Shown here one piece after another: positions 7,487 to 34,600 of a stretch of DNA of 64,000 bases (position 1 is its first letter; each line of letters starts with the position of its first letter). A model generated the notes under the pieces. It was not told the origin of the DNA. It did not search any database and saw nothing but the letters and a program-made list of their open reading frames with translations. The translations under genes were made by a program, and so were the position numbers. Origin of the DNA: an uncultured Gammaproteobacteria bacterium (lineage in GTDB: Bacteria > Patescibacteriota > Microgenomatia > Levybacterales > UBA12049); contig CAZNAA010000002.1 of NCBI GenBank assembly GCA_964571255.1, positions 28,746 to 92,745 of the forward strand. The letters are read 5' to 3'.

Positions 7487-8191
7487 TTATCCTTTTTTGG
7501 GAACTGCTGTTACATAAATTCTCTTCCACGTCGTTCCAGGAGGCCAACAGGTCTGCAAGATGAGTTTTTCCTCTGTCGTATGAGCATCAGTTAAAAACTG
7601 AACTTCATTTGCTTCTCCAACCCGCTGCTCAACTACTCTATAGTCATACCGTCTATCTTCAAAAAAGAGAGTGATATCGTCTCCCTTTTTCAAGTCTTTC
7701 AGGAGATAAAAAATGGCATTATATCGTCCTACATTCCAAAAATTATCCGTTGAGTGAGCGAAAAGATACGTATTGCCTTTCATTCCAGGAAAGACTGTCC
7801 CCTTAGCATGCGCTACTCCTTCTGTTAGGACAGGCAGGAACTCGTCCGATTTTTCTGGATCAATATTTGGAAAGATCTTAGCACTTGCCCCTATTTTTGG
7901 GATCAAAATACTAAATTGTGTATCAGATGGGATCAATATTTGCTCTTTGCTTCCAGATAAAATTTGTCCAAAGCCAATCGATGGAGTCGTTGCGGCACTT
8001 CTCGTAGCAACGTCAATATGTTCAATATCAGCAACCGCAAAGGTTACTCCTCTGTATTTAATCACTTGGTATTGAGCTTCGTAATAGAAAGCAGGTCCAA
8101 AGGTTGCCCCTACTCCATAGAGAGCAAAGAGAAGTAAAAAGTTACCAATTGTTCTGAGGATAAGATATTTTGTAATCTCTGACTTATTCAT
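7487..8191 (-). CDS. sortase (transpeptidase)
   Basis: 234 aa with an N-terminal TM segment. The catalytic LILQTCWP (LxTC) motif is followed by the conserved Arg region. Confidence 0.8.
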   Translation of the reverse strand: MNKSEITKYLILRTIGNFLLLFALYGVGATFGPAFYYEAQYQVIKYRGVTFAVADIEHIDVATRSAATTPSIGFGQILSGSKEQILIPSDTQFSILIPKIGASAKIFPNIDPEKSDEFLPVLTEGVAHAKGTVFPGMKGNTYLFAHSTDNFWNVGRYNAIFYLLKDLKKGDDITLFFEDRRYDYRVVEQRVGEANEVQFLTDAHTTEEKLILQTCWPPGTTWKRIYVTAVPKKG

Positions 8192-16111: not shown

Positions 16112-16943
16112 TATTAAACGTCACCTCTCCATCTTTATCTGTGCGATACATTTTTATTTTATTCTTCTCAAGTAAAGAAATCATCTCTTTTGATGGATGC
16201 CCATATTTGTTCTTCCCTACAGAAAAAACTGCTATCTCAGGCTTAATAAGATCAAGTATTTCTTGACTTAGACCACTTTTAGATCCATGGTGAGGAACTT
16301 GGAGAACATCAATATCCCCTGTAAACCCCTCAAGTGCATCTGTTAACCCCTCCACTTGACTATCTCCTGTAAAAAGAATCGAGGTGTCCTTATACTCAAG
16401 GAGTAAAACGAGGTTTCCAAAACCTTCACTTTCATTAATTTCCCCCGTTGGCGCAGTTTGCACTAAAAACTCCTTACTTGGGCCCAAAACAGTGAGCGAT
16501 ACTCCCTCACTCGTTTGATATGAGTCACCCTTCCACAAGTAGTTAATCAAGATGCTTTGGTCTGCTAAAGTACTCATCAAACTCAAGAATTCATCGGTCT
16601 GATTTGTCACTTTTTCTGTATCAAAACTCTTAATACTATATCGATAAATAACACTTTCAAGCCCTGCTAAGTGGTCTAAATGGGGATGAGTGAGAAAAAC
16701 AACGTCCAAGGTTCGGTCCCAAAAAGGAAGATGAGAAAGAAGACAAGAATGAATTGATTCGTTTGGCCCTCCATCAATGATAAATTGACTTCCTTTAGGA
16801 GTTCTAATAACAATAGCATCTCCCTGCCCCACGTTACAAAAAGTAACCGTGAGCCCTTCTGATCTGACAATCTGAAGTCCTTGATACAGCCCAAATCCAA
16901 GCATAAATAGGCCACTAAGAATGAGAAGAGGAAGTTTTTTCAT
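16065..16943 (-). CDS. MBL-fold metallo-hydrolase, ComEC C-terminal-domain-like
   Basis: 292 aa with an N-terminal TM segment. Carries the HPHLDHLAG (HxHxDH) motif. Overlaps the comEC-like ORF by 29 nt on the same strand. Confidence 0.75.
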   Translation of the reverse strand: MKKLPLLILSGLFMLGFGLYQGLQIVRSEGLTVTFCNVGQGDAIVIRTPKGSQFIIDGGPNESIHSCLLSHLPFWDRTLDVVFLTHPHLDHLAGLESVIYRYSIKSFDTEKVTNQTDEFLSLMSTLADQSILINYLWKGDSYQTSEGVSLTVLGPSKEFLVQTAPTGEINESEGFGNLVLLLEYKDTSILFTGDSQVEGLTDALEGFTGDIDVLQVPHHGSKSGLSQEILDLIKPEIAVFSVGKNKYGHPSKEMISLLEKNKIKMYRTDKDGEVTFNTKGKVLQVQVFPTQK

Positions 16944-18153
16944 ATGAGTTTCTATACAACACTAAATACAGCCAGACTGCAAGCAGATACCATCCAATAG
17001 AGAAGAATATCGAATCAATCTCAACAGTCAGTGAGAAAGGAGCAAAAAACAGCACTACTTGAGTAAAAAACCAGAGAAAAGGTACGCTAAGTGTTGCAAT
17101 AAGTGAGCCTAGAAGTGGAAAGACCAAACTTACCCCTCCACTTACTCCTCCAACAAGCATGAGAAGTGGCATCATCCAGAGAACTAAGGTATTCGTGAGA
17201 AGAGAAAAGAAATTAAGCTGGCCAAAGGTAAAAAGCAGAACAGGAAGGGTAAGGATTTGGGCACAAAACGTGATTAAGAGATCTGATATTCCCACAATTC
17301 CTTTGATATACCTTTCAAGAAACGGTTGATAGAGCAAAATACCCAGAGTTGAAAGAAAAGACAATTGAAACCCCAGATCAAAAAGTAAAAAAGGCTGAAA
17401 TATCACCATCCCATATCCAGCCAGGCATAATAACCAGACACCTCTAGTCTGCCTGCCCCATACTCCGCCAAGCAGAGTAATGCTTCCCATAATCGTAGCC
17501 CGCAGAATGCTTGCTTGAGCTCCTGCAAAGAAGAAATACAAAATAAGTACGCCTATACTCAAAAGGATTGCTGTTTGCCGCCTTGTTACACGCAGGAAAA
17601 GACTCATTAGCAGTCCTGCAAGAAGAGTAACATTCATGCCTGATGCAACAGTAATATGAGAAACTCCAGTTGATCTAATTGCCTCTTTCAGAGAGGGAGT
17701 AAGCGGCTGATTCACTCCAAAAGTAATCCCCGTTAGAAGCCCCACGTGATCAGAAGAGAGAAAATAAGACATTCTTTGCTTCACTTCTTGTTGAAAAGTA
17801 ATCAAAGAAGAGAGAAAAGGAGAAGAAGATAGGACTCTCACTTCATTTGCAGAGACTGAATACCAGACTCTTCCCCTGTCGTCTTTTCTTTCTTTAAAGA
17901 CTCCTTTTATACCTATTTTGTCTCCATAAGAAAGTCTTATTGTTTTCTTTGCAATGATAAAGACACGAAATTGCCCATTAGCAATCACGCTAAACGATTG
18001 ATACTCTGGTTTCTCCTCAGGGACGGAAAGAAGCGTTGCTTCAAAAAAAACCTCACGTTCTGGAGTGAAAGGAAGAGGAGTTGAGAAAAAAAGAAATAAA
18101 CGAAGAGATAAAAGAGAAAGTCCAACTAAACAGATTCCTAAAAAAAGCTTCAT
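16915..18153 (-). CDS. comEC: ComEC/Rec2-family competence membrane channel (N-terminal and competence domains only)
   Basis: 412 aa polytopic membrane protein with competence-domain-like TM topology. Directly downstream of comEA. Confidence 0.75.
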   Translation of the reverse strand: MKLFLGICLVGLSLLSLRLFLFFSTPLPFTPEREVFFEATLLSVPEEKPEYQSFSVIANGQFRVFIIAKKTIRLSYGDKIGIKGVFKERKDDRGRVWYSVSANEVRVLSSSPFLSSLITFQQEVKQRMSYFLSSDHVGLLTGITFGVNQPLTPSLKEAIRSTGVSHITVASGMNVTLLAGLLMSLFLRVTRRQTAILLSIGVLILYFFFAGAQASILRATIMGSITLLGGVWGRQTRGVWLLCLAGYGMVIFQPFLLFDLGFQLSFLSTLGILLYQPFLERYIKGIVGISDLLITFCAQILTLPVLLFTFGQLNFFSLLTNTLVLWMMPLLMLVGGVSGGVSLVFPLLGSLIATLSVPFLWFFTQVVLFFAPFSLTVEIDSIFFSIGWYLLAVWLYLVLYRNSYEKTSSSHS

Positions 18154-18767
18154 TAGAGTGTAATCATATTCCGTATCTTCTCAAAAACCCCTACTGATAC
18201 CACTTTTTTCTCAGTAAGCTCTTCAAGAGCACTATATGGCCTAGCTGATATGATTTTCTGTGCTGTTTGTACCCCAATTCCAGGCAGCGTATCCAACTGT
18301 GCCGCTGAGGCTGTATTCATAGAGATAAGACCATCTTTGCTTCCTAAAACACTGGTAGTAGAAATTACTACCTCTTCTCCTTCAAAAGGAATATATAACT
18401 TCATTCCATCAGTGAGTTTCTGAGCTAAGTTTATTTCTCTAGCAATGAGAGCTTTATTTGCATTTAGAGCAAATCCTCCAGCCATTTCAACCACTTCCCC
18501 CACTCTGCTCTCCTCAGAAACTGAATATAGTCCAGGAGAGACCACGGCACCAGAGAGATCAATAACAATTGTCTTAGGAGTTGCTGCAGAAGAAGAAACA
18601 GACTGGGACTCTTGCCCTCTGGTAAAGATAACCTCTGAAGACTCACGAGGAATAAAATACTGCATCAAACCGTATAGTAATAGACCAATTCCTATCAAGC
18701 CAATGATTGTTACCAAGCCGTATTTGCGAAGAGTAAGAAGAAATGAAGACTCAAAGTCATCATCCAT
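18153..18767 (-). CDS. comEA: competence protein ComEA (SLBB + helix-hairpin-helix DNA-binding)
   Basis: 204 aa with an N-terminal TM segment. The C-terminal LDTLPGIGVQTAQKIISARPY...VGVFEKIRNMI segment is a tandem HhH. Confidence 0.8.
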   Translation of the reverse strand: MDDDFESSFLLTLRKYGLVTIIGLIGIGLLLYGLMQYFIPRESSEVIFTRGQESQSVSSSAATPKTIVIDLSGAVVSPGLYSVSEESRVGEVVEMAGGFALNANKALIAREINLAQKLTDGMKLYIPFEGEEVVISTTSVLGSKDGLISMNTASAAQLDTLPGIGVQTAQKIISARPYSALEELTEKKVVSVGVFEKIRNMITL

Positions 18768-18816: not shown

Positions 18817-21288
18817 TTAGATAACAAAGTTAAGAACTCTTCCAGGAATAAAGATTACGTTTTTAATCTCTTTCCCTTCCAAGTACTTTTGTACTTTCTC
18901 ACTAGCTCTTGCCACTTCTTCTACGTTCTTTTGCTCTTTGCTTTCTTCACTCTCCATCTCAAAAACATCTCGCATCTTGCCATTAATCATAATCGTCATT
19001 GTGACTCTCTCTTCCTGAAGATACACTTCTGAAACATGGGGCCAATGATCACTATGAATACTATCCAGGTGTCCTAATTGATGCCACAATTCCTCTGAAA
19101 TATGAGGAGCAAAAGGAGAGAGAAGCATGAGCAGTGTTTCAATGGCTTTTTGCCAAGAATCTTGGCTTTCAAAGCCTTTCATCTTGAAACGATATAAGTC
19201 ATTAGTAAGTTCCATGAGCGAGGCAATTGCTGTGTTGTAATGCTGCTCTTCTAAATCTTCTGTTACTTTTTTAGCAGTTTTATGAGAAATCTTTAGCACT
19301 TCTCTATCTTCCTTGCTATCTCCCTTTTCCGAAGCTAAATACTCTTGTACCAAGTTCCATACTCGAGTAAGAAAGCGATATGAAGCGGGAACTCCCTGCT
19401 CCTCCCATTTGATCCATACTTCCAAAGGGGCTGCGAACATAAGATAAAGCCTGAGTGAATCTGCTCCATAGCCTTGACTAATAATTTCAAGAGGATCTAC
19501 TCCATTTCCTTTACTCTTACTAAACATTTGTCCGTCCGATCCTGTCACTTTTCCATTAAAAAGAAACTTTTTAAACGGTTCGGGAGTATTAAGAAGTCCC
19601 TTCTTATAGAAAAAGCGAGTGACAAATCGAGCATAAATCATATGAGCTGTGGCATGATCTGCTCCGTTATAGAAGTCAATTGGCATCCATTTGTTGATTA
19701 TGTTACTGTCAAAAATCTTTTTTGTATTTTGAGGATCAAAATACCTGAGCATATACCAACTACTACAAATATAGGTATCAAGCGTATCTGTCTCTCGCTC
19801 TCCTTCTTTTCCACACTGAGGACAAACTGATCTTACCCACTCACCTGCTCTAGCTAACGCACTTCTCCCGTCTCCTGAAGGAGCAAAATCTTTGAGTTCT
19901 GGAAGAAGAATTGGTAACTCACTATCTGGAACAAGAACTGGTCCACAATCAGGACAGTAAACAATTGGAATTGGAGCACCCCAATATCTTTGTCTACTGA
20001 CACTCCAGTCACGCATTTTGTAATTGATCTTTTCCCTTCCTTTTCCCTGCTTACTAAGCTCAGCTACAATCTTTTCTCGAGCTTCACTACTGGAAAGTCC
20101 TGTATAGTCTCCTGAGTTACTAAGAGTCCCTTCTCCCGTAAAGACCACTTTTTCTTCTCTATCTTCCTCAGTTTCACCTTGAATAACAAAGGTGATTGGC
20201 AAATCAAATTTTTTAGCAAACTCCAAATCGCGCTCATCATGAGCAGGAACTGCCATAATTGCTCCTGTTCCATAGTTCATCAGGACATAATCTGCCACCC
20301 AAACAGGCAGTCTTTCTCCACTTAGCGGATTTATGGCATAACTGCCAGTAAAAACGCCTGTTTTTTCTTTATTCGCTTGTCTTTCAACTTCTGATCTTCT
20401 TAAGCTCTCTTTAATATATGTTTCAACTGCCTTTTTGTTCTCCTCAGTGGTAAGAGAAGAAATAGATTCATTTTCTGGGGCCAAAACGAGAATAGTTGCT
20501 CCAAAAAGCGTATCAGGACGAGTTGTAAAGACAGTTATGTCCTTCTCTTTCCCTTCAATAGAAAAAGTAATTTCCGCACCAATTGACTTGCCAATCCAGT
20601 TTTTCTGAGCCAATTTGACACTTTCTGTCCAGTCAAGCTCATCAATTGCCTGCAGCAGCTCATCTGCATACTCAGTAATCCGGAAAAACCATTGTTTTAC
20701 TTCTTTTTGACTGACTTCTAAATCGTCTTGACTATCATGCCTCCAACATTTGTTGTTAATCACCTGTTCATTAGCCAAAACTGTTTGGCACTTATCACAC
20801 CACCACTGCATTCGAGCATCTTGATAGGCTAATCCCGATCGGTGCATCTCGCTAAAAATCCACTGAGTCCATTTGTAATATTCAGGCGTATGAGCGGCAA
20901 TTTCTTTACTCCAATCATTACTCCACCCCATGGCTTTATATTGAATATGATAATTAGGAATGATTTGCTCCATGGAGGCCTGAGGAGAAACTCCAGCCTT
21001 GATGGCATAATTCTCAGCAGGAAGACCAAAACTATCCCAGCCAACGGGATGATAACTTTCAAATCCCTGCTGTCTCTTAAACCGTGCTAAAACGTCACTA
21101 ATCGTATAATTCATCGCGTGTCCAATGTGAATTCCCGCTCCACTAGGATAATTAAACATACTCATGGAGATATATTTGGGTTTCGTACTCGCCAGGTTAG
21201 CTTTATACGTTTGCTTTTCATCCCAGTATGATTGCCATTTGGACTCAATTTCTTTAGGAAGATATTTACTCTTTTTTGTACTTGTCAT
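18817..21288 (-). CDS. leuS: leucine--tRNA ligase
   Basis: 823 aa. HIGH motif (GAGIHIGHAMNYT) and a KMSKS-like motif (MFSKSKGN) are present. An editing-domain insertion is present. Confidence 0.95.
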   Translation of the reverse strand: MTSTKKSKYLPKEIESKWQSYWDEKQTYKANLASTKPKYISMSMFNYPSGAGIHIGHAMNYTISDVLARFKRQQGFESYHPVGWDSFGLPAENYAIKAGVSPQASMEQIIPNYHIQYKAMGWSNDWSKEIAAHTPEYYKWTQWIFSEMHRSGLAYQDARMQWWCDKCQTVLANEQVINNKCWRHDSQDDLEVSQKEVKQWFFRITEYADELLQAIDELDWTESVKLAQKNWIGKSIGAEITFSIEGKEKDITVFTTRPDTLFGATILVLAPENESISSLTTEENKKAVETYIKESLRRSEVERQANKEKTGVFTGSYAINPLSGERLPVWVADYVLMNYGTGAIMAVPAHDERDLEFAKKFDLPITFVIQGETEEDREEKVVFTGEGTLSNSGDYTGLSSSEAREKIVAELSKQGKGREKINYKMRDWSVSRQRYWGAPIPIVYCPDCGPVLVPDSELPILLPELKDFAPSGDGRSALARAGEWVRSVCPQCGKEGERETDTLDTYICSSWYMLRYFDPQNTKKIFDSNIINKWMPIDFYNGADHATAHMIYARFVTRFFYKKGLLNTPEPFKKFLFNGKVTGSDGQMFSKSKGNGVDPLEIISQGYGADSLRLYLMFAAPLEVWIKWEEQGVPASYRFLTRVWNLVQEYLASEKGDSKEDREVLKISHKTAKKVTEDLEEQHYNTAIASLMELTNDLYRFKMKGFESQDSWQKAIETLLMLLSPFAPHISEELWHQLGHLDSIHSDHWPHVSEVYLQEERVTMTIMINGKMRDVFEMESEESKEQKNVEEVARASEKVQKYLEGKEIKNVIFIPGRVLNFVI

Positions 21289-21668: not shown

Positions 21669-22304
21669 ATGGACTTAAAACGCTTCTCTCTTCAGTCACT
21701 TCTTGTTCTTTGTGGAGTAGGTTTGGGAGGAATCATGCTTCTTCCTGTCGGAAAAGTCTATCAAGTTCCCCTTATTGGCATACTTACTTTTGCCTATTTA
21801 GTATTGACAATTCACAGAAACCCTTTCAAAAAGACTGTTGGCTCCTGGCATGATGCACCTACTCTTGCTATTCTTGCCTCTATTGTTCTTATTCTTGTCA
21901 TCACAACAGGAGGAAGTGAGAGTCCACTTTTTTTTCTTCTTTCCTTTGTTCTTTTTAGTATTGGCTTTGTGCTGTATCCTGAGATCCTTTTTGTCTTTTT
22001 AGCAGGAGTTCTGCTTCTTTTTTCTCCCCAACTGTTCTCCACTCCGTCCATTTTAGAGCTAGTGAATGCAGGCTCTCTCCTGCTTTTCTCACCTCTCTCC
22101 TACTTTTTTGGCAAGATTTTTCAAAAGGAGGGTGAGCAGGAGGAAGAAAAGACTGAGAGAAAAGAGATTCTGTCCGATGCAACAGAAACTATCCAAGAGG
22201 ACGTCAAAGAGATTATAGAAACTACTCCATTATCTGAGGAAAGCAAACAAAAGCTCGAGGAAATCTCAGAAGCTGCTGATGTGGTTAAAGACGCAACGAA
22301 ATAA
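21669..22304 (+). CDS. polytopic membrane protein with acidic C-terminal tail (211 aa)
   Basis: About five hydrophobic helices followed by an E/K-rich tail. Leads the surface-protein cluster. Confidence 0.5.
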   Translation: MDLKRFSLQSLLVLCGVGLGGIMLLPVGKVYQVPLIGILTFAYLVLTIHRNPFKKTVGSWHDAPTLAILASIVLILVITTGGSESPLFFLLSFVLFSIGFVLYPEILFVFLAGVLLLFSPQLFSTPSILELVNAGSLLLFSPLSYFFGKIFQKEGEQEEEKTERKEILSDATETIQEDVKEIIETTPLSEESKQKLEEISEAADVVKDATK

Positions 22305-22309
22305 GTCCT

Positions 22310-23059
22310 ATGAACAAAACACTTTTTTTCCTAGATCTTCAGATCGTTTTTTTATCTCTCTTTCTTGTTTTATGCGTTATTACCCAAACCTATGCGATCA
22401 CTATGACGAGTGATGACTATATTATTACAGAAGGCAACCTTAACTCGGCAGCAGGCAGGCCAACGAACAGTAATTATAAGTTAGGAGTAACCGTTGGAGA
22501 ATTGGGATCTGGAAGATATAGCGGAACAAATTATACAGTCAGAGCTGGATTTCAATACATTCACTCTATTATCCGCTTCAACTTTACTCTCTCAAGTGTC
22601 TTAATTGACTTTGGAACACTCACACCGACCAATCCAGTGACGAGAACTCAAACGCTAACTATATCTAACGGGTCAGCACATGGATATACGGTTACTGCTC
22701 AAGAAAACCATCCGCTACAGGTTGACTCCAGTGGTGCCCAGATTCCTGATACTACCTGTGACGCAGGGACCTGTACCGAGTCAACAAGTGCTGCTTGGAG
22801 TAATACGCTTACTTATGGCTTTGGCTATCGGTGTGATAACGTATCGGGAACTGATTGTGCTACAGGCTTTACTACAGGAACCTTCTATAAGCAGTTTCCC
22901 AATATGAACGCTAGCGAAACTCCAGTAGGAGTGATGACTGGGGTAAATGTGGGAAGAAACAAGCAAACCCAAATTACGTATAAGGCAAACGTTTCAGGAA
23001 CTCAACCAGGAGGACTCTATCGGAATGTGATTACCTATATTGCCACCCCAACTCTATGA
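22310..23059 (+). CDS. secreted beta-rich surface protein, WxL-domain-like (C-terminus ...YRNVITYIATPTL)
   Basis: 249 aa with an N-terminal signal/TM segment and Thr/Gly/Asn-rich sequence. Its C-terminal motif is shared with the 24101 paralogue. Confidence 0.5.
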   Translation: MNKTLFFLDLQIVFLSLFLVLCVITQTYAITMTSDDYIITEGNLNSAAGRPTNSNYKLGVTVGELGSGRYSGTNYTVRAGFQYIHSIIRFNFTLSSVLIDFGTLTPTNPVTRTQTLTISNGSAHGYTVTAQENHPLQVDSSGAQIPDTTCDAGTCTESTSAAWSNTLTYGFGYRCDNVSGTDCATGFTTGTFYKQFPNMNASETPVGVMTGVNVGRNKQTQITYKANVSGTQPGGLYRNVITYIATPTL

Positions 23060-24066
23060 AACACCTACTCCTTCTTATTACCATTCTGACTATCTTTACT
23101 TTTTTCTTTCCAAGTATGTCTAGTGCACAAGAGATTGGACTAGGAATATACCCACCCATTAGCACTATCGATGCAACACCGCCAGCGACTATTTTAGTAC
23201 CTCTGAGTGTTGAAAACAGCAGTAGTGAACCTTTGACTGTTGAGATGGAGCTCAAACCATTTGCTCCCTCATCTTCAGAGGACGGGACAGTTACCTATCT
23301 ATCAGATGATACCGTCTTTCCGAGTGGAGACATCTTGCTTCTTCAGCGGATTCGAATCATTCAAAACAAGAAACAAGTGAGCAAGTTACTTCTTGCCCCC
23401 AAAGAGATTGCCGAAGTTGATGTTTCTATTCCCCTCTCTAAACAAACGGTTCCAGGAGATTATTACTTCTCTGTTATCTTTACAGGACACCCATCTCTTC
23501 CTGGACCAGAGCAAAATACCCAGTCATCAGTCTCGCAAGCTGGGATTGCCAGCCACATCTTACTCTCTGTAGGGCCAAAAGGAAAGGCTCAAGGAGAAAT
23601 AAAAGAGTTTTCCAGTCCTTTTTTCCTGACACAAGGCCCAGTTCCCTTCACGCTTCGTATAACCAATACCTCTGCTCACACGATTGCCCCAACCGGATCA
23701 CTCTATATAACCAATATGTTTGGTCAAACAGTGGGAAAGGTAGATATTCTCCCTGTTCATGTTCTTTCAAACAGCACCAGACTTACTCCTGACAGGAAGC
23801 AAACAAATGATAATGGAGAGGTCAAAGAAGCACTCTATGAGGAATTTCTCTCTCATGGACCACGAGTTTTATGGCAAGAATCTTTTTTACTGGGAGTGTA
23901 TCAGGCAACGGTTAAAGTAAAATTATCAGAAAACGGTCCTCTTGTTTCAAAGTCCACTACCTTTATTGCTTTTCCTCTCCCACTTCTGATTGGATTTGGG
24001 GTCGTTATTCTTCTCGTTATCACCATTATTCAGAGAGTACGCCTGAAGATAAAATATTCGTATTGA
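23056..24066 (+). CDS. DUF916/DUF3324-like cell-surface protein with C-terminal TM anchor
   Basis: 336 aa. Has a signal peptide and a C-terminal TM segment followed by a basic tail (LLIGFGVVILLVITIIQRVRLK). Size and topology match CscA-like partners of WxL proteins. Confidence 0.5.
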   Translation: MKHLLLLITILTIFTFFFPSMSSAQEIGLGIYPPISTIDATPPATILVPLSVENSSSEPLTVEMELKPFAPSSSEDGTVTYLSDDTVFPSGDILLLQRIRIIQNKKQVSKLLLAPKEIAEVDVSIPLSKQTVPGDYYFSVIFTGHPSLPGPEQNTQSSVSQAGIASHILLSVGPKGKAQGEIKEFSSPFFLTQGPVPFTLRITNTSAHTIAPTGSLYITNMFGQTVGKVDILPVHVLSNSTRLTPDRKQTNDNGEVKEALYEEFLSHGPRVLWQESFLLGVYQATVKVKLSENGPLVSKSTTFIAFPLPLLIGFGVVILLVITIIQRVRLKIKYSY

Positions 24067-24100
24067 CAAGACTTTCTCACACAAAGCATACTGTCAGTAT

Positions 24101-25513
24101 ATGGAAAAATATTTCTCTTTCCTTCGTTACGTTGTCATTACCCTTATTCTGATAACAGGAATGAATCTCGCCACAAAAGACGTCCACGCCTTAGGAACTC
24201 TGGCTAATTTAAAAGATACCATTACGACATCTCGTCCATCCGCTTCATCCCCTTTAACGGCTGATGAAGGAACAAGTTCCTCTATTATTGATATTGCAAA
24301 TAATGGCTCCAGATATTTTGCCTCAGATTCTGCCAAAATTGTCAGAACCTCTAGTGGAGCACAAATTGTCGGAGGACTCTTTGTTGCCTCTCAATCTGCT
24401 GACCTTACTGATGTATATTTGACCACTACTACGGGAACTGCAGCACAAGCTGCAACTGATGTTTTAGTGACTAATATTACTGCACTCCACACGATTCAAT
24501 TTACGACAGCTACTGCTATTCCAACTAGTGGAACGATTGTCATTACTTTTCCAGGAGGTGCCTCAAATATAGCCTCTCCGAGTGCTACTACGTTTTCTTT
24601 TAATGGAATGAGTACATCTAATCCTTCTGACGTGTTATTTAATAATGCCACCTGTTCATCAGTCACTGTCTCTGCACCAACGATTACCTGTACCCTTTCT
24701 GGAGGAGTATCTGCAAGTACAACCGTCACTGTTCTTATTGGGTGCACATCTCAATCAAGTGGAGCATGTACCGTTCAAGCTCCCCGCCTTATTAACCCAA
24801 TTAAGACCAATAGTGCTGGAAACAGAGATTTGTGGACGGTCAATGTCAAAACAACAGATGGAGCAGCTGATTTAGATACGGGAAAAGCACTCATTGGCAT
24901 TATTGAATCAGTTGAGGTGAAAGCTGCGGTTGATAATAGCTTAACCTTTACCATTACAGGAGGATTCTCTAGTGGAACAGCTATAAATAATGGAAATAGC
25001 ACCGGCTGTACGAATAGTGAAACGGTTACTTCAAGTGTTGGCGCAACCAGTACCTCTACCCTGGTTGACTTAGGTATTCTAACCACGAGTGCGATAAATA
25101 TCCATGCTCAGCGAATCAATATCACAACCAATGGGCTTGGAGGATATACTCTCACCGCAACGTCATCAGGACATTTGATTAATAACGCCACAGGATACTT
25201 CATTCCTGATAGTACAACCCCAACAGCAATGACTGCAGGGACAGCCTGGTTTGGACTTCATGCCTGTGGGCTAGATGTAGCAAGTGGAACCTGGGGAACA
25301 GGAGCAACAGGAGGAGGAGCAGGAGCCTTATACGGCTGGCCAACCAAAACCACTGCAGTTACCCTTGCTACAGATTCAACAGGCCCAGTTGATACTTCTC
25401 TTGCAACTGGTAATGGAATAACAAGTGTAGAATATGCAGCTACTGTGTCTGCTGCAATCCCAGCTGGAGCCTATCAAGCTTATGTTACATACGTAGCAAC
25501 ACCAACCTTTTAA
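24101..25513 (+). CDS. secreted beta-rich surface protein, WxL-domain-like (C-terminus ...YQAYVTYVATPTF)
   Basis: 470 aa with a signal peptide and Thr/Ser/Gly-rich sequence. Its C-terminal motif is paralogous to the 22310 protein. Confidence 0.5.
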   Translation: MEKYFSFLRYVVITLILITGMNLATKDVHALGTLANLKDTITTSRPSASSPLTADEGTSSSIIDIANNGSRYFASDSAKIVRTSSGAQIVGGLFVASQSADLTDVYLTTTTGTAAQAATDVLVTNITALHTIQFTTATAIPTSGTIVITFPGGASNIASPSATTFSFNGMSTSNPSDVLFNNATCSSVTVSAPTITCTLSGGVSASTTVTVLIGCTSQSSGACTVQAPRLINPIKTNSAGNRDLWTVNVKTTDGAADLDTGKALIGIIESVEVKAAVDNSLTFTITGGFSSGTAINNGNSTGCTNSETVTSSVGATSTSTLVDLGILTTSAINIHAQRINITTNGLGGYTLTATSSGHLINNATGYFIPDSTTPTAMTAGTAWFGLHACGLDVASGTWGTGATGGGAGALYGWPTKTTAVTLATDSTGPVDTSLATGNGITSVEYAATVSAAIPAGAYQAYVTYVATPTF

Positions 25514-25515
25514 CT

Positions 25516-26517
25516 ATGAACTACCTGCCGCACCTATCACTACTCAAAATTGGACTCACCACATTCTCATTTGGCCTTGTTGTTTCTCTCGTTACTGCCC
25601 CTCTCACTCTCGCTCAAGAATCACGATCTTTTACGGTTATTCCTCCAAGTATCTCTCATAGATTGAATCCTGGAGAAACAACTGAGGGAGTATTACGAGT
25701 CATTAATGACAGTGCAGAACCTCTTACTTTCTCACTCAGTATTCAAGACTATATCGTAGAGGATAATAATGGAACACCTACCTTTGTAACAGACGGAAAA
25801 CTAAGTAACAAGTATTCTGCTGCTTCCTGGATTGGCGTTAGTCCAAATCGATTTACCCTTGCTCCAAAACAAAGAGAAGATCTTGCCTACTTGATTAAAA
25901 TCCCAAAAGATGCTCGTCCTGGAGGACATTATGCAGCTGTAACGTATACTCCTGATGCGAAAGGTACTACCACAGGTTCTGGAACAGCCGTATCAACAGT
26001 TGTTGGAACTCTGATGTATATTGATGTGAATGGAGAGATTGTTGAAAAAGCCAGTGTAAAAGAGTTCTCTTCTCCTGGTTTTTCTGAATATGCCCCGATA
26101 TCTCTTCATACAATTATTCGAAATGAAGGAGACTTACACATTGCTCCCTACGGAACTATCGTTGTTAAAAACATGTGGGGAAAAGTCATTTCCACTCAAG
26201 CTATTTTGAGTAAAAATATTTTTCCTCAAGCTGTACGAGAATTTGAAAATATTGTTGATCGAAAATGGATGTTTGGAAGCTATACAGCTGAATTTACTGC
26301 AAAATATGGACGACAAAATGCCCTCTCTCTCACTGCTTCTTCTACGTTTTGGGTTATTCCTTGGAAAATGATTGTCATCATTATTCTCGCTGTTGCTGTA
26401 GGTATCTTGGGAGTTCTTATGATTAATAAGAAAAAAACGAATTCAGAAGAGACAAAAGAAACAGAAGGAAATGAAGCAAAAGTGGAAGAGACTCCTTCTG
26501 AAACCACCTCTCTCTAA
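25516..26517 (+). CDS. DUF916/DUF3324-like cell-surface protein with C-terminal TM anchor (paralogue of 23056)
   Basis: 333 aa. Has a signal peptide, the FTVIPP...EPLTF architecture also seen in 23056, and a C-terminal TM segment followed by a K-rich tail. Confidence 0.5.
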   Translation: MNYLPHLSLLKIGLTTFSFGLVVSLVTAPLTLAQESRSFTVIPPSISHRLNPGETTEGVLRVINDSAEPLTFSLSIQDYIVEDNNGTPTFVTDGKLSNKYSAASWIGVSPNRFTLAPKQREDLAYLIKIPKDARPGGHYAAVTYTPDAKGTTTGSGTAVSTVVGTLMYIDVNGEIVEKASVKEFSSPGFSEYAPISLHTIIRNEGDLHIAPYGTIVVKNMWGKVISTQAILSKNIFPQAVREFENIVDRKWMFGSYTAEFTAKYGRQNALSLTASSTFWVIPWKMIVIIILAVAVGILGVLMINKKKTNSEETKETEGNEAKVEETPSETTSL

Positions 26518-26921: not shown

Positions 26922-27812
26922 CTAATACCCGACGAACCAGGCATGATGCAATTTTTTCTTTGACGAACCAAACAAAAAGGAGAAAAGACGACTGGAATAA
27001 ATAAAGGTAAAGTGTTGAGGCCAGAGTTTAACAATGAGGATAATAATGAGGATAATCAAGGGTATTCCTACCCACAATAATCCCAATCCTGAGCCTATAA
27101 AAACTCCAATAAGTATCTCCCACATTTTCTGCAGAAACCGGAGAAATTGCTCCCATAACCCAAGCGCTTTTAAAGTAAGAAAACGTGAAGGGGCAACTGA
27201 TGGTTGCCCATTATAAGTCGCATCTGCATAGAGCTGATATACTCCAGCTGGCAAATCAGCAACCGTCACTTCATAATAGCCTTCTGTATCTGCAGTAACA
27301 GTAATACTTCGTCCTCCAACGTGAACGGTTACTTTTGCACCTGGCATAGAATAACCAAAAGCCAAAACGCTTGATCCCGCCGCAATTTCTGACCGTTGTA
27401 ATGCTATCGTAGGAGGGAGAAAGATATTGTCTTTTCGCATACTTGCAATCAGAGGTGGAAAAGTAAAGCAACTATATGATTCTCCTAAGTTGTGATAATC
27501 CTTTGCTTGAAGACAGAAACTTGTTAGTCCTCTATTGATTCGTACTTGAGAGATAGAAAATCTTCCATCAGCCCCTGCTACCGTCCCTCTGTAATATACC
27601 CCATCTATCAATAATCCAACGGAAGCATAGGGAGAAATAAAACCAGAAACAGATAAGAAAAATTCTCCCACCTCTGCACCCACTTTTATTTCTGCTTTTC
27701 CTTGAGGAACATAGGCATGGGTGACTGTTAACGAAAGAGAAAAGAAAAAGATACTCAAAAGAGTACAAAAAAGAACCAATGTAACTAGGGATACAGGCAG
27801 CTTGTTGAACAT
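26922..27812 (-). CDS. membrane-anchored secreted protein with prealbumin/CarboxypepD_reg-like beta domain
   Basis: 296 aa with a signal peptide and a C-terminal TM segment. VTVHVGGRSITVTADTEGYYEVTV is typical of Ig-like transthyretin-fold domains. Confidence 0.45.
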   Translation of the reverse strand: MFNKLPVSLVTLVLFCTLLSIFFFSLSLTVTHAYVPQGKAEIKVGAEVGEFFLSVSGFISPYASVGLLIDGVYYRGTVAGADGRFSISQVRINRGLTSFCLQAKDYHNLGESYSCFTFPPLIASMRKDNIFLPPTIALQRSEIAAGSSVLAFGYSMPGAKVTVHVGGRSITVTADTEGYYEVTVADLPAGVYQLYADATYNGQPSVAPSRFLTLKALGLWEQFLRFLQKMWEILIGVFIGSGLGLLWVGIPLIILIIILIVKLWPQHFTFIYSSRLFSFLFGSSKKKLHHAWFVGY

Positions 27813-28637: not shown

Positions 28638-31600
28638 ATGGAACACATAGAAAATTTTCAGTTATATTTAATTCAAAAAGGTTCTTCTCGTCCTACCGTA
28701 AAAAACTACATAGCTGATATTCGAAAGTTTATTAAGTTTCTAGAAACCACTAGCTCTTTCTCTCCAAGTGCTATCACCTCTGACTCAATTGCTGCCTATA
28801 AAACCCATCTTTCCTCCCTTCAGACCTCTCCTTCATCAATTGACAGATATCTCTCCAGTCTTCGTAAATTCACCAGTTTTTTGAGTGAAAAAAAACTTTT
28901 AGCCATTAATCCATTTCTGATTACTGAAGAAAAAGAGGTGGATATCTGGGAGTTGGGTGGATTTAAAAACGCGCTCCATACCCAGCACGTTTCTCCACTC
29001 ACCGTCAAAAATTACTTTCTAGACATCAAACAATTCCTCTCTTGGATAGAGAAAGTGGATACAAACATAACAAAAGATAACAATATCTCCCGCATCACAC
29101 CTGAAGTTGTAGAAACATATAAATCTCGCCTTCTTTCTCAAATGGAGCTCTCTCCTCTATCTGTAAATCGAAAACTTTCTTCCCTTCGAAAATACCTTTC
29201 CTATCTCTATGCAGGAGGACATCTAAATACGCTTCCTCAGATTAAAAACCAGCTAGAAGCAGAGCTTATAGATCAAAAAGGCTCAGAAGATATCATTGAA
29301 TTCCCGGTTATTACAGAAACCCCTCACACTCCTGAGGCCACACCGGTAGTTCCCTCTTCTTTTGCACCTATTCGTCTCACTAGGGCAAGTAAGAAGGGAC
29401 TCAATTACCTTTTTGATCTAGCGGTTATTACTCCTTTAGCCTCACTTTACAGTAAAGGACACATTCTTTTTAGAAAATCTCAAGGAAAAAATGGTTTATT
29501 TGAAGCAAAACAAATCAAAAAGTCTTTTGCTCTTTCCTCTTTTCTTCCAAGTAATAAGAAATTTGAAATATTCCATACCTTTATCACCAAAAATCCAAAA
29601 CAGCTGTTTAAAGGACAAATTTCCAATATCTCAAAGTCATTTTACGCTCCCCTGTCTCTCTCAACCACAGAGTTTCCCCTCCATAAAAAGATTTGGCATC
29701 ACCTACGTCATACTCGTCCAGCCTGGTATGACAAATATCACTCCTATCCACTCACTCACTACTTCCACTTTGCCGTACTCATGATTGTCATCACCATTGT
29801 GGGAACAGGCATGTACTCAGTTCTTTTTGACTCTGGAAAGAAAAACCCTGCACTCGCAGCACTGCCTACTGCCCCACCCCGTATTCTGTCCTTCCAAGGA
29901 AGGCTCACTGACTCTTCTGATAACCCCATTACGACGTACAAAAACGTCCGTTTTTCTATTTATGATGACAGCGCAGCAACTGGTTCAGGAAACCTGCTAT
30001 GGCAAGAGCTTCAAGGAGTAACGCCTGATGAAGATGGAGTTTTTTCCGTTCTAATGGGAAATACCGTTACAACGTGTGCCAACCCATTAACTGTGGCCAC
30101 GGGACCTTGTGCTATTCCCTCAACTCTTTTTACCGAGAACGCCACACTTTATTTGGGAGTAACCATTGAGAATGATAGTGAGCTAACACCTCGACAACAA
30201 GTCGCAACCGTTGCCTATGCAACTAATTCAGAAACACTCCAAGGACTTCCTCCATCAACAGCAGCAGGCGCCGCAACCAATAACGTTGTGCTGGCACTAG
30301 ACTCAAGTGGGAACTTGACCATTGGCGGAAGTGCTACCCCTACCTTCCAAGCCTCAGGAGGGCAGTTCACACTGTCAGGAACGGTACTTAAGATAACAAC
30401 AACAGCTGGAAGTAACAGTAATGTTCAAATCACTCCTGATGGACTTGGAAAAGTCGATATTCAAAAATCGATTATAAACTCTGGCGTTAATGGACCTTTG
30501 ACTACAGCTGCAGGCGCAGTCCAGGTTGATGACTTATTTGCTGTTAACGCAACCTCTTCTGGTCAATCTGCCTTCACACTCAATCAAGATGGAGCAGGAT
30601 CTCTTTTCTCTGCATCAGCATCTGGAGTCAATCGATTTGTCATTCGAAACGATGGAAATGTAGGCATTGGCTCAACAACACCAACAGCTACACTTGACGT
30701 CGTAGGAACAACGAAACTATCTAGTACCCTCACCCTTTCCTCACTCACTGCTAACGGTGGAGTTATTTACACTAACGGCTCAGGAGTTGTTGCCCAAACT
30801 GCAGTTGGATCTAGTGGCGAGTGTCTTCAATCAATTGGTGGAGGAACACCTATCTGGGGAAGCTGCACAGGAAGTAATGGGAGTAAATGGACTATTACGG
30901 CTGGTGCAATTCATCCTAATAACGTAACACTTGACGCACTTATTGGTGGAAACAGTACAGCGAGTGCTAAGTTTGGCTTTATTAACGTAGCAGGAGGAAC
31001 ACCTACTGCTACCATTTCTGGAAACCTTGCACTTGCTGTCCCAACAGGAGCAGATCCTGCTACTACCTACTCAGTTCTTAACGGAGGAACAATTAATTTT
31101 CGAACCAGTGTGGGTGGAGACAGCGGATTATCCAGCAGATTATACATTGCCAATGCAGGAAACGTTGGGATTAACTCTACATCTCCAACCAATGGCTATA
31201 TTCTTGATGCTGTAGGACGGGGAAGATTTTCAACAGGTTTATCTGTTGGAACAACAGCAACAACAAACACGGTAGAGATTGTGGGAACAGTAAATCAAGC
31301 TACTGGACAAGTAACGTTTGGAGGAAATGTTGATGCCACCTCAGGGGTTGACGTAACAGGAGCCTCACTAACTGTTGGTGGAGCTAACTTTTCTGTCACT
31401 ACTGCAGGCTTAGTCACCACAGCTGATGACGTGGCTATCAACGGAGGAGACATCACAACCAGTGGTACATCTTTCAATCTCCTTAACACAAATGCAACCT
31501 CTATTAACTTCGCCGGAGCTGCTACTGGTACTTTAGCTATTGGAAATACCTCTGGCACTACTAATCTTCTTGGTGCCAATGTTCGATTAGGAGATACCTC

Positions 31601-34600
31601 AAATGGAGTTAATATAACTAGCGCTGGTATTATTTCTGATTTGAATGGGAACGTTACGGTTCAGGATCATTTGGTTCCTCAAGCAGATGCTACGTACGAT
31701 TTAGGAACCACAGGACTCCAATGGAGAAATGCCTATGTATCTGGAAGTATTTGTTTTGCTGGAGGAACTGACTGTACCTCTTCCTTTTCTAGCTTAGGAG
31801 TTAACTACTGGAATATCACTTCAGGGACCCTGCAACCCAAAAATGCAACACTTGATCTTTTAATCGGAGGAACAGCAACAACGAGTGCTGATTTTGCCTT
31901 CATTAATGTTGATAGCGGAAATCCCACTGCTTCCATTGGTGCTAATTTAGCTATTGCTGTCCCAACTGGTGCTAATCCTGCAACCACGTATTCTGCTTTT
32001 AACGGAGGAACAATTAATTTTCGAACCAGTGTTGGTGGAGACAGCGGGGCTACGAGCAGGCTCTTTATTGCGAATAATGGAAATATTGGAATTGGAACAA
32101 CTACTCCTGGGCAAGAGTTAGATGTAAATGGCGATATTTTAGTGGGCGCTGGAAGTACTATTGATACTCGAGCTGCAGGTACTCTGACTATTGGTGGAAC
32201 TACCCAAACGGGATTAACAGTTGGAAGAACTGGCACTTCAACAGCAATTGCTGGTAACTCTTCTTCCTCAATTGACTTTGGTAACTTTGATGTAACGGCA
32301 GCAGGACTAGTGACAACAGCTGATGATGTGGCTATTAACGGAGGAGACTTAACAACCTCTGGTTCTTCTTTCAACCTTTTAAATGCTACAGCAACGAGTA
32401 TCAACTTCGCTGGTGGAGCAACAGGAACATTGGCTATTGGAAATACCTCTGGCACTACGAATCTTCTTGGTGCCAATGTTCGATTAGGAGATACCTCAAA
32501 TGGAGTTAATATAACTAGTGCTGGAATCATTACTGATTTAAATGGAAATGTGACGGTTCAAGACCATTTGGTTCCCCAAGCAGATAATACGTATGACCTT
32601 GGGACAACAACACTCCAGTGGAGAACTATTTATGCAGGAACGAGTATTTGTTTTGCTGGAGGAACTGATTGTACCTCCTCATTCTCGACTCTTGGGGTGA
32701 ATTACTGGAATCTCGCCTCAGGTACTCTTCAACCGAAGAACAGCACCCTTGATTTACTAGTTGGCGGAACAGCAACAACGAGTGCTAAGTTTGGCTTTAT
32801 TAACGTAAATAGCGGAACTCCAACCGCTACTATTTCTGGAAACCTTGCCCTTGCTGTCCCAACTGGAGCTGATCCTGCCACTACCTACTCTGCTTTTAAT
32901 GGAGGGTCAATTAATTTCAGAACCAGTGTTGGAGGAGATGCTGGGGCAACAAGTAGACTCTTTATTGCCAACCTTGGAAACGTTGGAATTGGCTCAACCA
33001 GTCCCACGCAAGCACTTGACGTTGTGGGAAACATTACTCTAAGCGGGACATCAGGACTTGCTCTTACGGGATCTGATGCTGATTTGACATTCTCAGGAAC
33101 AAGTAATCACGATATTACCGCTAGCAGTGGAACTCTTCGAATAGGAGCTGCCACTCTTACTGGAGCTCTGAATGCAAGTTCTAATACTATCACCAATGCC
33201 ACTTCCTATAACGGACTTGTTATTACTGCCAATACAGGAGTTATCACCACTGGAACATGGAATGGAACTGCAGTTGGTGCTACGTATGGAGGAACTGGAA
33301 TCAATACCAGTGGATCAACAGGAGTTCCCTATATCACAAGTGGAACCTGGAGTGTGGATACCAACGCCCTCACTGCGCCTCACGGAGGAACAGGACAAAC
33401 TATTTATGCAGTAGGAGATACCTTGTATGCCTCAAGTACTACTGCCCTATCAAAACTCACCATTGGCTCAACCGGACAAGCCTTAACTGTTTCTGGAGGC
33501 ATACCTGCCTGGGCAAATACCAATACTTCAGCATTTGGGTTGTGGGACCAAGCGAGTGGAGTGATTAACCCAAAAAACAGTACCCTTGATTTACTAGTTG
33601 GCGGTAGTGCGACAACGAGTGCTAAGTTTGGCCTTATTAATGTCAATAGTGGAACTCCAACGGCTACTATTTCTGGAAATCTTGCCATTGCTGTCCCAAC
33701 TGGATCAAACCCTGCAACCACCTACTCTGCTTTCAATGGAGGGTCAATTAACTTCAGGACTTCCGTTGGTGGAGATACTGGGGCAACGAGCAGACTATAT
33801 ATTGAAAATCTAGGTAACGTAGGAGTTGGAACAACGACACTTGATCGAAAAATGTCAGTAGCTGGAGACTTTATTGCTGGAGGAACCGGTACTGGACTCA
33901 TCATGACAGGAACAACGTTAACATCAGGCTTTTACCCAGGTGCTTCTGTTGTTGATCACGATATGATCATAAAAAACGGGACAATTAATGGAAATATCTT
34001 TTTTCAAACAGGAGCAGCTACTACGAGACTAGCAATTGATAATGTAGGCACTCTTACAGCTTCAGCCTATACAACAAATGGAGGACTTCTATATACCAAT
34101 GGCTCAGGTGTTTTTAGCCAAACTGCAGCAGGAAGCAGTGGTCAGTGTCTCCAATCCAATGGAGGTGGAGCTCCTACCTGGATCACCTGTGCAACTGGCA
34201 GTAAATGGACAATTACAGCAGGAGGAATTCATCCTAATAATGCAACACTTGATCTCTTTATCGGAGGAACTGCAACTGCTTCATCAAAATTTGCTTTTAT
34301 TAATGTCAATAGTGGAACTCCAACTTTTAGAGCCTATAACTCAACCAGTGCTCAATATCTCTCTCTTAATCATGATGGGACAGATGGAAATATTACCGCC
34401 TCAACCGGAACCATTAACATTGGACAAGGTGGAGGAACGCTTTACTTAGAAACAGATATCAAAAACGATACGACCAATTATGCAGGATTTGTTCAGATCA
34501 GTGATAAATTATTGGTTCAAGGACCAACTGAGGCGAGTGCTAATTCTCTGGCTATTTTAGATAACACAACAGCAGGTGCTGATATTTTAACTGCCTCAAG

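Follow-up and report, generated by a model that had tools for sequence, protein, structure and literature searches.

A Compact Pam-Type Pilus Cassette Proposed for a Microgenomatia Bacterium, with Helper Proteins Remotely Related to WxLIP

Organization of the Locus

What kind of surface structure is specified by two successive gene pairs, each coding for a secreted, threonine- and glycine-rich beta-protein and a membrane-anchored partner, in a bacterium of the candidate phyla radiation (CPR)? The question is raised by a locus at 22310-26517 of a 64,000-nt stretch of DNA (the window; contig CAZNAA010000002.1, positions 28,746 to 92,745, assembly GCA_964571255.1), to which all coordinates below refer. 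An earlier note, made from the letters of this stretch, had likened the locus to the WxL/DUF916 surface complexes of Gram-positive bacteria and had suggested that a motif shared by the two secreted proteins is a cell-wall binding tag. We consider it probable, at about three chances in four, that these genes make up a compact Pam-type pilus operon, that of a Microgenomatia (Levybacteria-like) bacterium, and code for a PamT-like subunit and a PamA-like pilin, each with a chaperone after it.

The four open reading frames (ORFs) are co-directional on the plus strand and form two pairs, subunit then helper, as the earlier note had laid them out. A 249-aa secreted protein (22310-23059) is followed by a 336-aa helper (23056-24066), the two genes overlapping by 4 nt; after a gap of 34 nt comes a 470-aa secreted protein (24101-25513) and, 2 nt beyond it, a 333-aa helper (25516-26517). 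Both secreted proteins carry an N-terminal hydrophobic, signal-like segment, and their Thr and Gly contents are high (16.1% and 9.6% in the 249-aa protein, 17.9% and 10.0% in the 470-aa protein). The signal sequence of both helpers terminates in A-Q-E, and each helper has a C-terminal hydrophobic helix with basic residues (...QRVRLKIKYSY and ...NKKKTN...), giving the signal peptide, transmembrane (TM) segment and basic tail that had been noted for these ~335-aa proteins.

The 249-aa protein is built as a PamT-like single-domain subunit, in which a short N-terminal region separates the signal peptide (residues ~1-29) from a Pam-type C-terminal domain (~84-249). The 470-aa protein has the architecture of a PamA-like two-domain pilin, in which a signal peptide (~1-30) is followed by an N-terminal beta-sandwich (~55-260), a linker and a Pam-type C-terminal domain (~275-470) that carries conserved Cys pairs. 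The helpers, which share 26% identity, fall into two classes of chaperone-like protein. Class 1 (the 336-aa protein) consists of a signal peptide, two immunoglobulin (Ig)-like domains, a C-terminal TM helix and a basic tail; in class 2 (the 333-aa protein), the signal peptide is followed by a DUF916-like Ig domain (~38-172), another Ig-like domain (~178-281), a TM helix (283-312) and a cytoplasmic tail. Relative to class 2, class 1 has two insertions in its Ig-like domains.

Similarity to the Pam Pilus System

The closest curated models for the secreted proteins are those of the Pam pilus. The 249-aa protein matches NCBIfam model NF058579 (CPR_pilus_PamT) at E = 3.8e-15, its residues 12-248 aligning to positions 7-240 of the 241 in the model, and the 470-aa protein matches NF058581 (CPR_Pam_pilin_C) at E = 2.1e-9, with residues 319-470 on positions 3-148 of 148. 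NF058581 is also matched by the 249-aa protein (E = 6.9e-6), which aligns to the final position of the model. Both models derive from a preprint on Ca. Mycosynbacter amalyticus, a parasitic CPR bacterium of the Saccharimonadia, in which thin PamA/PamB filaments were examined by cryo-electron microscopy (Troman et al., bioRxiv 10.64898/2026.03.03.709456). PamA and PamB are each described there as a beta-sandwich N-terminal domain connected by a linker strand to a truncated Ig-like C-terminal domain, which accepts a strand from its neighbour, and the filaments as being held together by donor-strand exchange, with the inter-domain linker as the donor strand. The same text proposes the single-domain PamT of the operon as the tip, describes PamC and PamD as PapD/FimC-like chaperones that unusually retain a C-terminal TM helix, mentions a 'tail fibre-like protein' co-localised with pam operons, and places homologues in Saccharimonadia and, at ~21% identity, in Microgenomatia.

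Structure prediction with AlphaFold2 (AF2) gave an all-beta model of the 470-aa pilin (mean confidence score, pLDDT, 78), with two domains joined by a low-confidence linker at residues 268-280. Its best Foldseek match in the Protein Data Bank (PDB) was CfaE, the two-domain adhesin of CFA/I, and FimA was also listed. The model of the 333-aa helper (pLDDT 83.8) consists of two beta-sandwich domains and a helix at residues 283-312, and it matches the chaperones CfaA, FimC, Caf1M, DraB and CsuC of chaperone-usher systems (Foldseek, E = 1e-9 to 1e-8). A Pfam scan of the two secreted proteins returned no match, and when PDB sequences were searched with either subunit or its family profile, only chance matches were obtained.

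In common with the Pam system, the cassette combines a single-domain PamT-like subunit and a two-domain pilin that share a Pam-like C-terminal domain, helpers with two Ig-like domains and a C-terminal TM helix, and Sec signal peptides on all components. Pilins and chaperones are co-operonic in both, a giant fibre-like protein is found nearby, the distribution is restricted to CPR bacteria, and the conserved cysteine pairs in the pilin family alignment are as in PamA/PamB. The cassette differs in being minimal, with four genes and one two-domain pilin as against PamA, PamB and PamE, and in having a chaperone gene of its own directly after each subunit gene. It also differs in the hyper-conserved segment near the N-terminus of its pilin family (described below), of which we found no mention in the accessible text of the preprint (10.64898/2026.03.03.709456).

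Several observations weigh against the assignment. Both NCBIfam models are matched below their curated cut-offs, at 56 bits for the 249-aa protein against NF058579 (equivalog cut-off 240 bits), and at 37.6 bits (470-aa protein) and 26.2 bits (249-aa protein) against NF058581 (cut-off 55 bits); judged by its sequence, the 249-aa protein is a PamT homologue and not a certified equivalog. The window lacks PamB, PamE and a clear PamR gene, hmmsearch and the motif scan finding just two proteins with the C-terminal domain in it, and in place of a recognisable RbmA-like PamR there is a different conserved Ig-like TM protein on the opposite strand. There are no ATP synthase genes near the cassette or elsewhere within the window. 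The comparison with PamA-T of M. amalyticus was made through the NCBIfam models and the published description; it is by analogy with chaperone-usher pilins and Pam structures that the C-terminal strand is assigned a part in strand complementation; and no filament is on record for any Microgenomatia. The low scores need not argue against Pam membership, because the Saccharibacteria-type pilins of syntenic loci also fall below the Pam_pilin_C cut-off (30.2 and 17.3 bits) and the curated models appear to be narrow. They are consistent with a distant branch, as is the ~21% identity given for a Microgenomatia example in the preprint.

The Shared C-Terminal Domain and Its Last Strand

The near-identical ends of the two secreted proteins, to which the earlier note had drawn attention, are exactly as quoted there: GGLYRNVITYIATPTL in the PamT-like protein (23009-23056, plus strand; residues 234-249) and AGAYQAYVTYVATPTF in the pilin (25463-25510, plus strand; residues 455-470). 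A six-frame scan of the 64-kb window found TY[IV]ATP[TSA][LFY] followed by a stop codon at just these two places. The likeness of the tails spans ~160 residues and not 8, because the hhalign match between the two C-terminal regions covers the whole C-terminal domain (probability 96.7%, E = 3.4e-10, 147 columns). Since this entire domain is homologous between the two proteins, the similarity of the tails is far beyond chance.

The signature is not confined to the pair in the window. A HMMER scan of 1.84 billion cluster representatives retrieved 968 relatives of the PamT-like protein at E ≤ 1e-3, and motif statistics were taken from the best 150 of them, as representatives of 50%-identity clusters. 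The tail forms the extreme C-terminus in more than 90% of these 150 and has the consensus G(-15) x Y(-13) x N x [IV](-9) T [YF](-7) [IVL] A(-5) x P(-3) x [FY](-1), with Y(-13) present in 145/150, A(-5) in 130/150, P(-3) in 139/150 and a terminal F or Y in 131/150. In the pilin family (27 sequences, 49–65% identical), the residues P454, G456, Y458, T463, Y464, A466, T467 and F470 are invariant near the C-terminus, and residues 462-468 form the final beta-strand of the AF2 model. The shared motif is the terminal beta-strand of a ~160-aa domain common to both secreted proteins. As this is a buried-type strand with alternating hydrophobic residues, the tail is better explained as a structural strand than as an exposed tag. 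The suggestion of a non-covalent cell-wall tag is unlikely and is superseded by the match of the Pam models, which extends through the last residue of both subunits.

In chaperone-usher pilins, the C-terminal strand borders the donor-strand groove. By analogy with these and with the Pam structures, we infer that the conserved tail would be the groove-lining last strand of an incomplete Ig-like domain. Such a terminal strand, G-x-Y-x3-[IV]-T-[YF]-[IV]-A-x-P-x-[FY], offers a simple marker for Pam-type subunits.

A Possible Assembly Pathway

Assembly might proceed as follows. All four products would be exported by Sec, and the 249-aa and 470-aa subunits would share an incomplete Ig-like C-terminal domain with the G-x-Y-x3-[IV]-T-Y-[IV]-A-T-P-x-[FL] tail as its last strand. 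Each subunit gene being followed by that for its own membrane-anchored chaperone with two Ig domains, this chaperone would insert a beta-strand into the open groove of the subunit, beside the C-terminal strand, and so hold the subunit ready for assembly at the membrane. In donor-strand exchange, the strand donated by the next pilin would then take the place of that of the chaperone, and the product would be a thin filament, capped at its distal end by the PamT-like subunit and formed without an usher or an outer membrane. By analogy with PamT, the 249-aa protein would act as the tip or as the first donor-strand acceptor, and the class 1 helper, the gene for which always lies directly after that of the PamT-like protein in related loci, would be its dedicated chaperone. 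The sole charged residue conserved across 116 CPR helpers is Arg241 (83%), a candidate for binding the C-terminal carboxylate of the subunit.

The parallels to chaperone-usher pili (Pap, Fim, CFA/I class 5, Caf1 and Csu) include the fold of the helper (Foldseek ~1e-9), the match of the pilin model to CfaE, and a conserved C-terminal strand in which hydrophobic residues alternate and the last or penultimate residue is aromatic. In contrast to those systems, the window ORFs that were scanned include no usher-like protein, an outer membrane is lacking, the chaperones are membrane-anchored and not soluble, and the pilins have two domains. PapD_N and PapD_C had no match in 32 members of the helper family, and one match at E = 0.055 was seen in a Saccharibacteria-type helper. 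In the Pam structures, the donor strand is the inter-domain linker and not an N-terminal extension (10.64898/2026.03.03.709456).

Helper Proteins and the WxLIP Family

The best Pfam match of both helpers in the window is PF06030 (WxLIP_PGBD), although below threshold, at E = 0.007 (16.8 bits) for the 336-aa protein and E = 0.003 (18 bits) for the 333-aa protein against a gathering score of 27.3. The same family is matched by 23/32 members of the helper family (best E = 6.9e-5) and by 7/10 Saccharibacteria-type helpers, the best of which, at 26.3 bits, again stays below the gathering score. When the helper family profile was run against 177,635 PDB sequences, the only significant match was EfmWxLIP1 of E. 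faecium (E = 1.9e-4), and the top Foldseek matches of the 333-aa helper model, ahead of the chaperone-usher chaperones, were the WxLIP structures 9i25_C and 9i1y (E = 1e-11).

Profiles of the ectodomain domains, with signal peptide and TM helix removed, were compared by hhalign with WxLIPs from six annotated WxL clusters of Enterococcus and Listeria plasmid records. The N-domain of class 2 matched the DUF916 region at 93% (E = 3.3e-7) and that of the class 1 family (31 orthologues) at 94.5% (E = 8e-8); the two helper families matched each other at 100%, and eight unrelated control pairs gave P = 0.14–0.6. The second domain of the helpers gave P = 0.32 against the DUF3324 region and had no Pfam match, and corresponds to it in generic Ig-like fold and domain position only. 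A conserved WxLIP motif near the N-terminus of the peptidoglycan-binding domain (PGBD), NQIDKxxxYFDLK (PMC10599100), is present in the WxLIPs of the plasmid records but absent from the CPR helper family, which has a shorter PPT-type segment at that position. These results support the helpers as remote homologues of the WxLIP DUF916 domain, and do not support membership at the family level.

The helpers and the WxLIPs of Lactobacillales and Listeria (WxL/WxLIP, or Csc, clusters; PF13731, PF06030, PF11797; PDB 9i25, 9i1y) share the plan of signal peptide, two Ig domains, TM helix and basic tail. Gene content is likewise similar: WxL clusters encode a small protein that is little more than the domain, a larger one that ends in it, and a TM-anchored protein with two Ig domains (PMC10599100). 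In an AF2 analysis of WxL clusters, a beta-hairpin of DUF916 was predicted to insert into the WxL domain (PMC10599100), which is the same principle as strand complementation by a chaperone.

Secreted Subunits and the WxL Domain

Evidence for the other half of the analogy, between the secreted subunits and WxL proteins, is weaker. At E ≤ 10, PF13731 (WxL) matches neither the 249-aa nor the 470-aa protein, and it matches 0/27 members of the pilin family. Compared with an alignment of 22 WxL sequences, either of the two C-terminal-domain families gave hhalign P = 0.015, as against P = 0.42 for an N-terminal-domain control, and a merged profile of 265 C-terminal domains gave P = 0.035, no gain over the separate ones. 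The alignments are collinear, placing FxFSIS..IDFG on LSIDYVS.I.FG, GYxVxAxExHPL on GWxLxVxQxxxF, and YxNxITYIAxP on YxTxLTWxLxDxP. A WxL hidden Markov model (HMM) run against the 265 CPR domains reached E = 0.0017 at best, compared with 0.44 for reversed decoys; among 2040 ORFs of related loci its best match was a PamT-like protein, and several matches showed the same two-segment register. A WxL protein used as query had no match among PDB sequences.

The landmarks held in common are a strand-x-FG, a G-aromatic-x-L-x-V and a Y-x3-h-T-aromatic near the C-terminus (h, hydrophobic). Tryptophan is absent from both motif positions in the CPR subunits, which read GYTVTA/GYTLTA proximally and ITYIA/VTYVA distally. 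The spacing of the distal WxL motif, to which the tails had been compared in the earlier note, is matched only approximately: the order is collinear, but the proline follows the distal aromatic by 4 residues here and by 6 in WxL, two residues nearer, and the CPR motif stands at the very C-terminus. The window cassette also lacks a small LPXTG (CscD-like) gene, its host belongs to the CPR and not the Firmicutes, and descriptions of WxL proteins speak of monomers or complexes bound to peptidoglycan, not of filaments. Taken at the level of sequence profiles, a relationship of the secreted subunits to WxL-domain proteins is only suggestive. The earlier likening to a WxL/DUF916 locus is partly supported: the helpers show profile similarity to the DUF916 family, and the motif recurs in other genomes. 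It finds no support in DUF3324, and for the subunits as WxL proteins it is unproven.

Two proteins of Enterococcus WxL clusters have Y or F in place of the distal Trp (..TTITYNLTADP and ..ANITFDLRSAP), and the distal Trp is accordingly not obligatory in the WxL family. One of the two is annotated as WxL and the other as a BspA-type leucine-rich repeat (LRR) protein, and an adjacent 'hypothetical protein' ends in ..GTISYQLYNTADAQ (ORFs concerned: L006:5023-5739, L006:6848-11326 and L002:5168-5776).

Distribution and Synteny

A scan with the pilin alignment, keeping one genome per species, yielded 71 related loci. The closest, on which the Levybacteria-like placement of the window rests, are from Levybacteria (up to 56% identity), and the others from Shapiro-, Collier-, Woese-, Pace-, Kaiser-, Lloyd- and Saccharibacteria and WWE3. 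Homologues of the cassette occur in strict synteny across dozens of genomes at 27–65% identity, and ORF calling with HMM searches found the order T-like protein (~250 aa), class 1 chaperone (~340 aa), pilin (~480 aa), class 2 chaperone (~325 aa) in ~35 of the 71. All 372 homologues of the pilin are unnamed or from Patescibacteria. Together with the 968 PamT-like clusters at 50% identity, these relatives can now be given names, as can the four 'hypothetical' genes themselves, and the Pam pilus of the 2026 preprint would take the form, in Microgenomatia, of a minimal and tightly conserved four-gene cassette with a fixed set of neighbours.

Loci of the Saccharibacteria type are arranged differently. 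In them, a large protein (440–2700 aa) bearing the same terminal domain and tail is followed by two chaperone-like genes, a pilin of 380–400 aa that ends in ...LTYVATP[VIT]F, and another chaperone-like gene.

The terminal-strand marker also flags giant adhesin-like proteins (1000–2700 aa) with a Pam-type terminal domain. Proteins of 2000–2700 aa with this domain and tail (...Y[IV].[VT]P.[FY]) were seen at L047:104-6805, L061:76-7008, L067:89-8296, L071:3203-10450, L074:3287-10519 and L076:4259-10399, in genomes labelled Saccharibacteria, Kaiserbacteria, WWE3, Patescibacteria or only 'bacterium', and chaperone-like genes follow them wherever neighbouring DNA was recovered. They have the appearance of giant tip adhesins, with a parallel in the 'large WxL proteins' of Firmicutes, in which LRR/internalin domains precede a C-terminal WxL domain.

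The cassette was also found in records titled candidate division TM6, Planctomycetota, Clostridia or Gammaproteobacteria, among them L049 (CP011212.1), L038, L041 and many third-party annotation (TPA) metagenome-assembled genomes titled 'uncultured Gammaproteobacteria/Pseudomonadales'. The short contigs are probably binning contaminants, and the TPA titles are probably mislabels. The 'TM6' record is a complete 853-kb genome, and its cassette bears on whether Pam pili are exclusive to the CPR.

Alternative Explanations

The most serious competitor of a Pam-type pilus is a WxL-type surface complex, in which diverged WxL proteins would be bound non-covalently to peptidoglycan through the motif as a wall tag, with WxLIP-like proteins as stabilising partners and no filament. 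It would account for the remote homology of the helpers to the DUF916 domain, for a cluster logic that is the same as in WxL clusters, and for the weak collinear similarity over both motif positions (P = 0.015–0.035), with a PamT-like protein as the best WxL HMM match of the 2040 ORFs; also in its favour is the Y or F for the distal W in some genuine WxL-annotated proteins (L006). Yet Trp is absent from both motif positions, Pfam WxL is matched by none of the 27 pilin-family members nor by the 249-aa protein, and on the helper side the DUF3324 half is undetectable by sequence and NQIDKxxxYFDLK is absent. The motif lies in a buried-type terminal strand, which suits a structural element better than an exposed tag, and the closest curated models are those of the Pam pilus, in which proteins with this domain are shown by experiment to form filaments (10.64898/2026.03.03.709456). 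We regard a WxL-type wall complex as unlikely.

A sorting or secretion signal would be a different reading of the motif, either like the beta-signal recognised by a membrane insertase or as a site of sortase or exosortase processing. The extreme C-terminal position, alternating hydrophobic residues and terminal aromatic give it a superficial likeness to the beta-signals of outer-membrane proteins, and a sortase gene lies 14 kb upstream. CPR bacteria are generally regarded as being without an outer membrane and the beta-barrel assembly machinery (BAM), and the beta-signal version was rejected for a monoderm host. The sortase/exosortase version was rejected because neither a TM segment nor a basic tail follows the motif; there is no LPXTG-like sequence either, and the motif ends a conserved domain of ~160 aa that aligns to the last position of Pam_pilin_C. 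A signal of either kind is very improbable. Less probable still is mere adjacency of unrelated secreted beta-rich and membrane proteins, with tails alike through composition. The proteins are indeed low-complexity-like, being rich in Thr, Gly, Ser and Ala, but this coincidence is effectively refuted by the homology of whole domains (E = 3e-10), by the strict synteny in dozens of genomes at 27–65% identity and by the position-specific conservation of the motif, and the reversed-sequence and cross-domain controls were negative.

A Possible Common Origin with WxL/WxLIP Clusters

The helper homology raises the possibility, which we hold tentatively and at somewhat less than even odds, that CPR Pam pili and Firmicutes WxL/WxLIP (Csc) clusters descend, as separate branches, from a single ancient monoderm system built on membrane-anchored chaperones and strand-complemented subunits. 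Under a common origin, the correspondence of PamC/PamD-type helpers to WxLIP is supported, whereas the evidence is only suggestive for a WxL domain that corresponds to the C-terminal domain of Pam pilins, where Tyr would stand for the two signature Trp. If it were true, the two 'WxL motifs' would be strands with a structural role in an incomplete Ig-like fold, which a partner strand completes, and the WxL proteins of enterococci, listeriae and lactobacilli may be chaperone-complemented and possibly polymerising, and not simple peptidoglycan-binding tags. The homology of Pam helpers to WxLIP is a possible bridge between CPR pili and the surface proteins of Gram-positive pathogens and probiotics; should the subunit domains also be related, WxL surface proteins would have to be reinterpreted in terms of donor-strand complementation. 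Our literature searches found no paper linking Pam and WxL, and the Pam preprint makes no mention of WxL (10.64898/2026.03.03.709456). The link appears to be previously unreported in the literature searched.

Further Features of the Cassette and Neighbouring Genes

The only sizeable intergenic gap of the cassette (34 nt), before the pilin gene, is occupied by a promoter-like site found by consensus scan only (TTGACA, 18 nt, CATACT; 24063-24092, plus strand). It is a possible internal promoter for the major subunit, and could provide for higher expression of the pilin than of the tip subunit.

Directly past the predicted signal-peptide cleavage site of the pilin, residues 38-51 (24212-24253) form the most conserved stretch of the family, DTITTSRPSASSPL. 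In this segment T43, S44, R45, P46, S47 and P51 are invariant across the 27 pilin-family sequences, and the AF2 model has a strand at residues 35-41, at its start. The segment might serve as an N-terminal donor strand, or might be a site of processing or glycosylation.

A multi-pass membrane protein of 211 aa with an acidic C-terminal tail (21669-22304, plus strand) ends 5 nt before the first pilus gene. It has no informative Pfam or NCBIfam match, in 20 related loci a homologue of it immediately precedes the PamT-like gene, and it is possibly an accessory gene. On the other side of the cassette, a divergent gene (26922-27812, minus strand) codes for a 296-aa protein whose signal peptide is followed by two Ig-like domains and a TM helix, and which has Pfam matches to CarboxypepD_reg and Big domains. 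Its second Ig-like domain is Bap-repeat-like (E = 1.4e-6), an invariant FLPPT lies between the domains, and the cytoplasmic end is conserved (...KLWPExFTFIY...KKLHHAWFVGY). Of all the neighbours it is the most conserved, 39 related loci having a homologue right after the cassette, and as a candidate terminator or membrane anchor it would be an analogue of PamR.

The next gene (28638-39770, plus strand) specifies a giant, fibre-like surface protein of 3710 aa, in which Pfam detects two N-terminal phage-integrase SAM-like domains, before long Gly/Thr/Ser/Ala-rich repeats, and a Peptidase_G2 intramolecular-chaperone cleavage domain near residue 3100. Homologues are found downstream of the cassette in 24 loci, and it is a conserved neighbour, to be taken as context rather than as a proven part. 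It fits the 'tail fibre-like' neighbour of pam operons described in the preprint (10.64898/2026.03.03.709456). A second giant protein of 3587 aa (39841-50604) has no Pfam match, and weakly resembles a 2735-aa WWE3 protein with a terminal Pam-type domain.

Farther away, the window carries genes for a sortase (7487-8191, minus strand), two DUF11-domain surface proteins (56367-57050 and 61687-62373, plus strand) and a TrwB/VirD4-like coupling ATPase (57043-59199, minus strand), which belong to other surface or type IV secretion functions and have no obvious connection with the cassette. Just upstream of the cassette are genes for ComEC (Competence domain), ComEA (SLBB and HHH) and leucyl-tRNA synthetase (LeuRS) (16915-18767 and 18817-21288, minus strand). 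Homologues of these adjoin the pilus cassette in 15–22 related loci, which may be no more than gene order conserved among Levybacteria, or may connect DNA uptake with the pilus.

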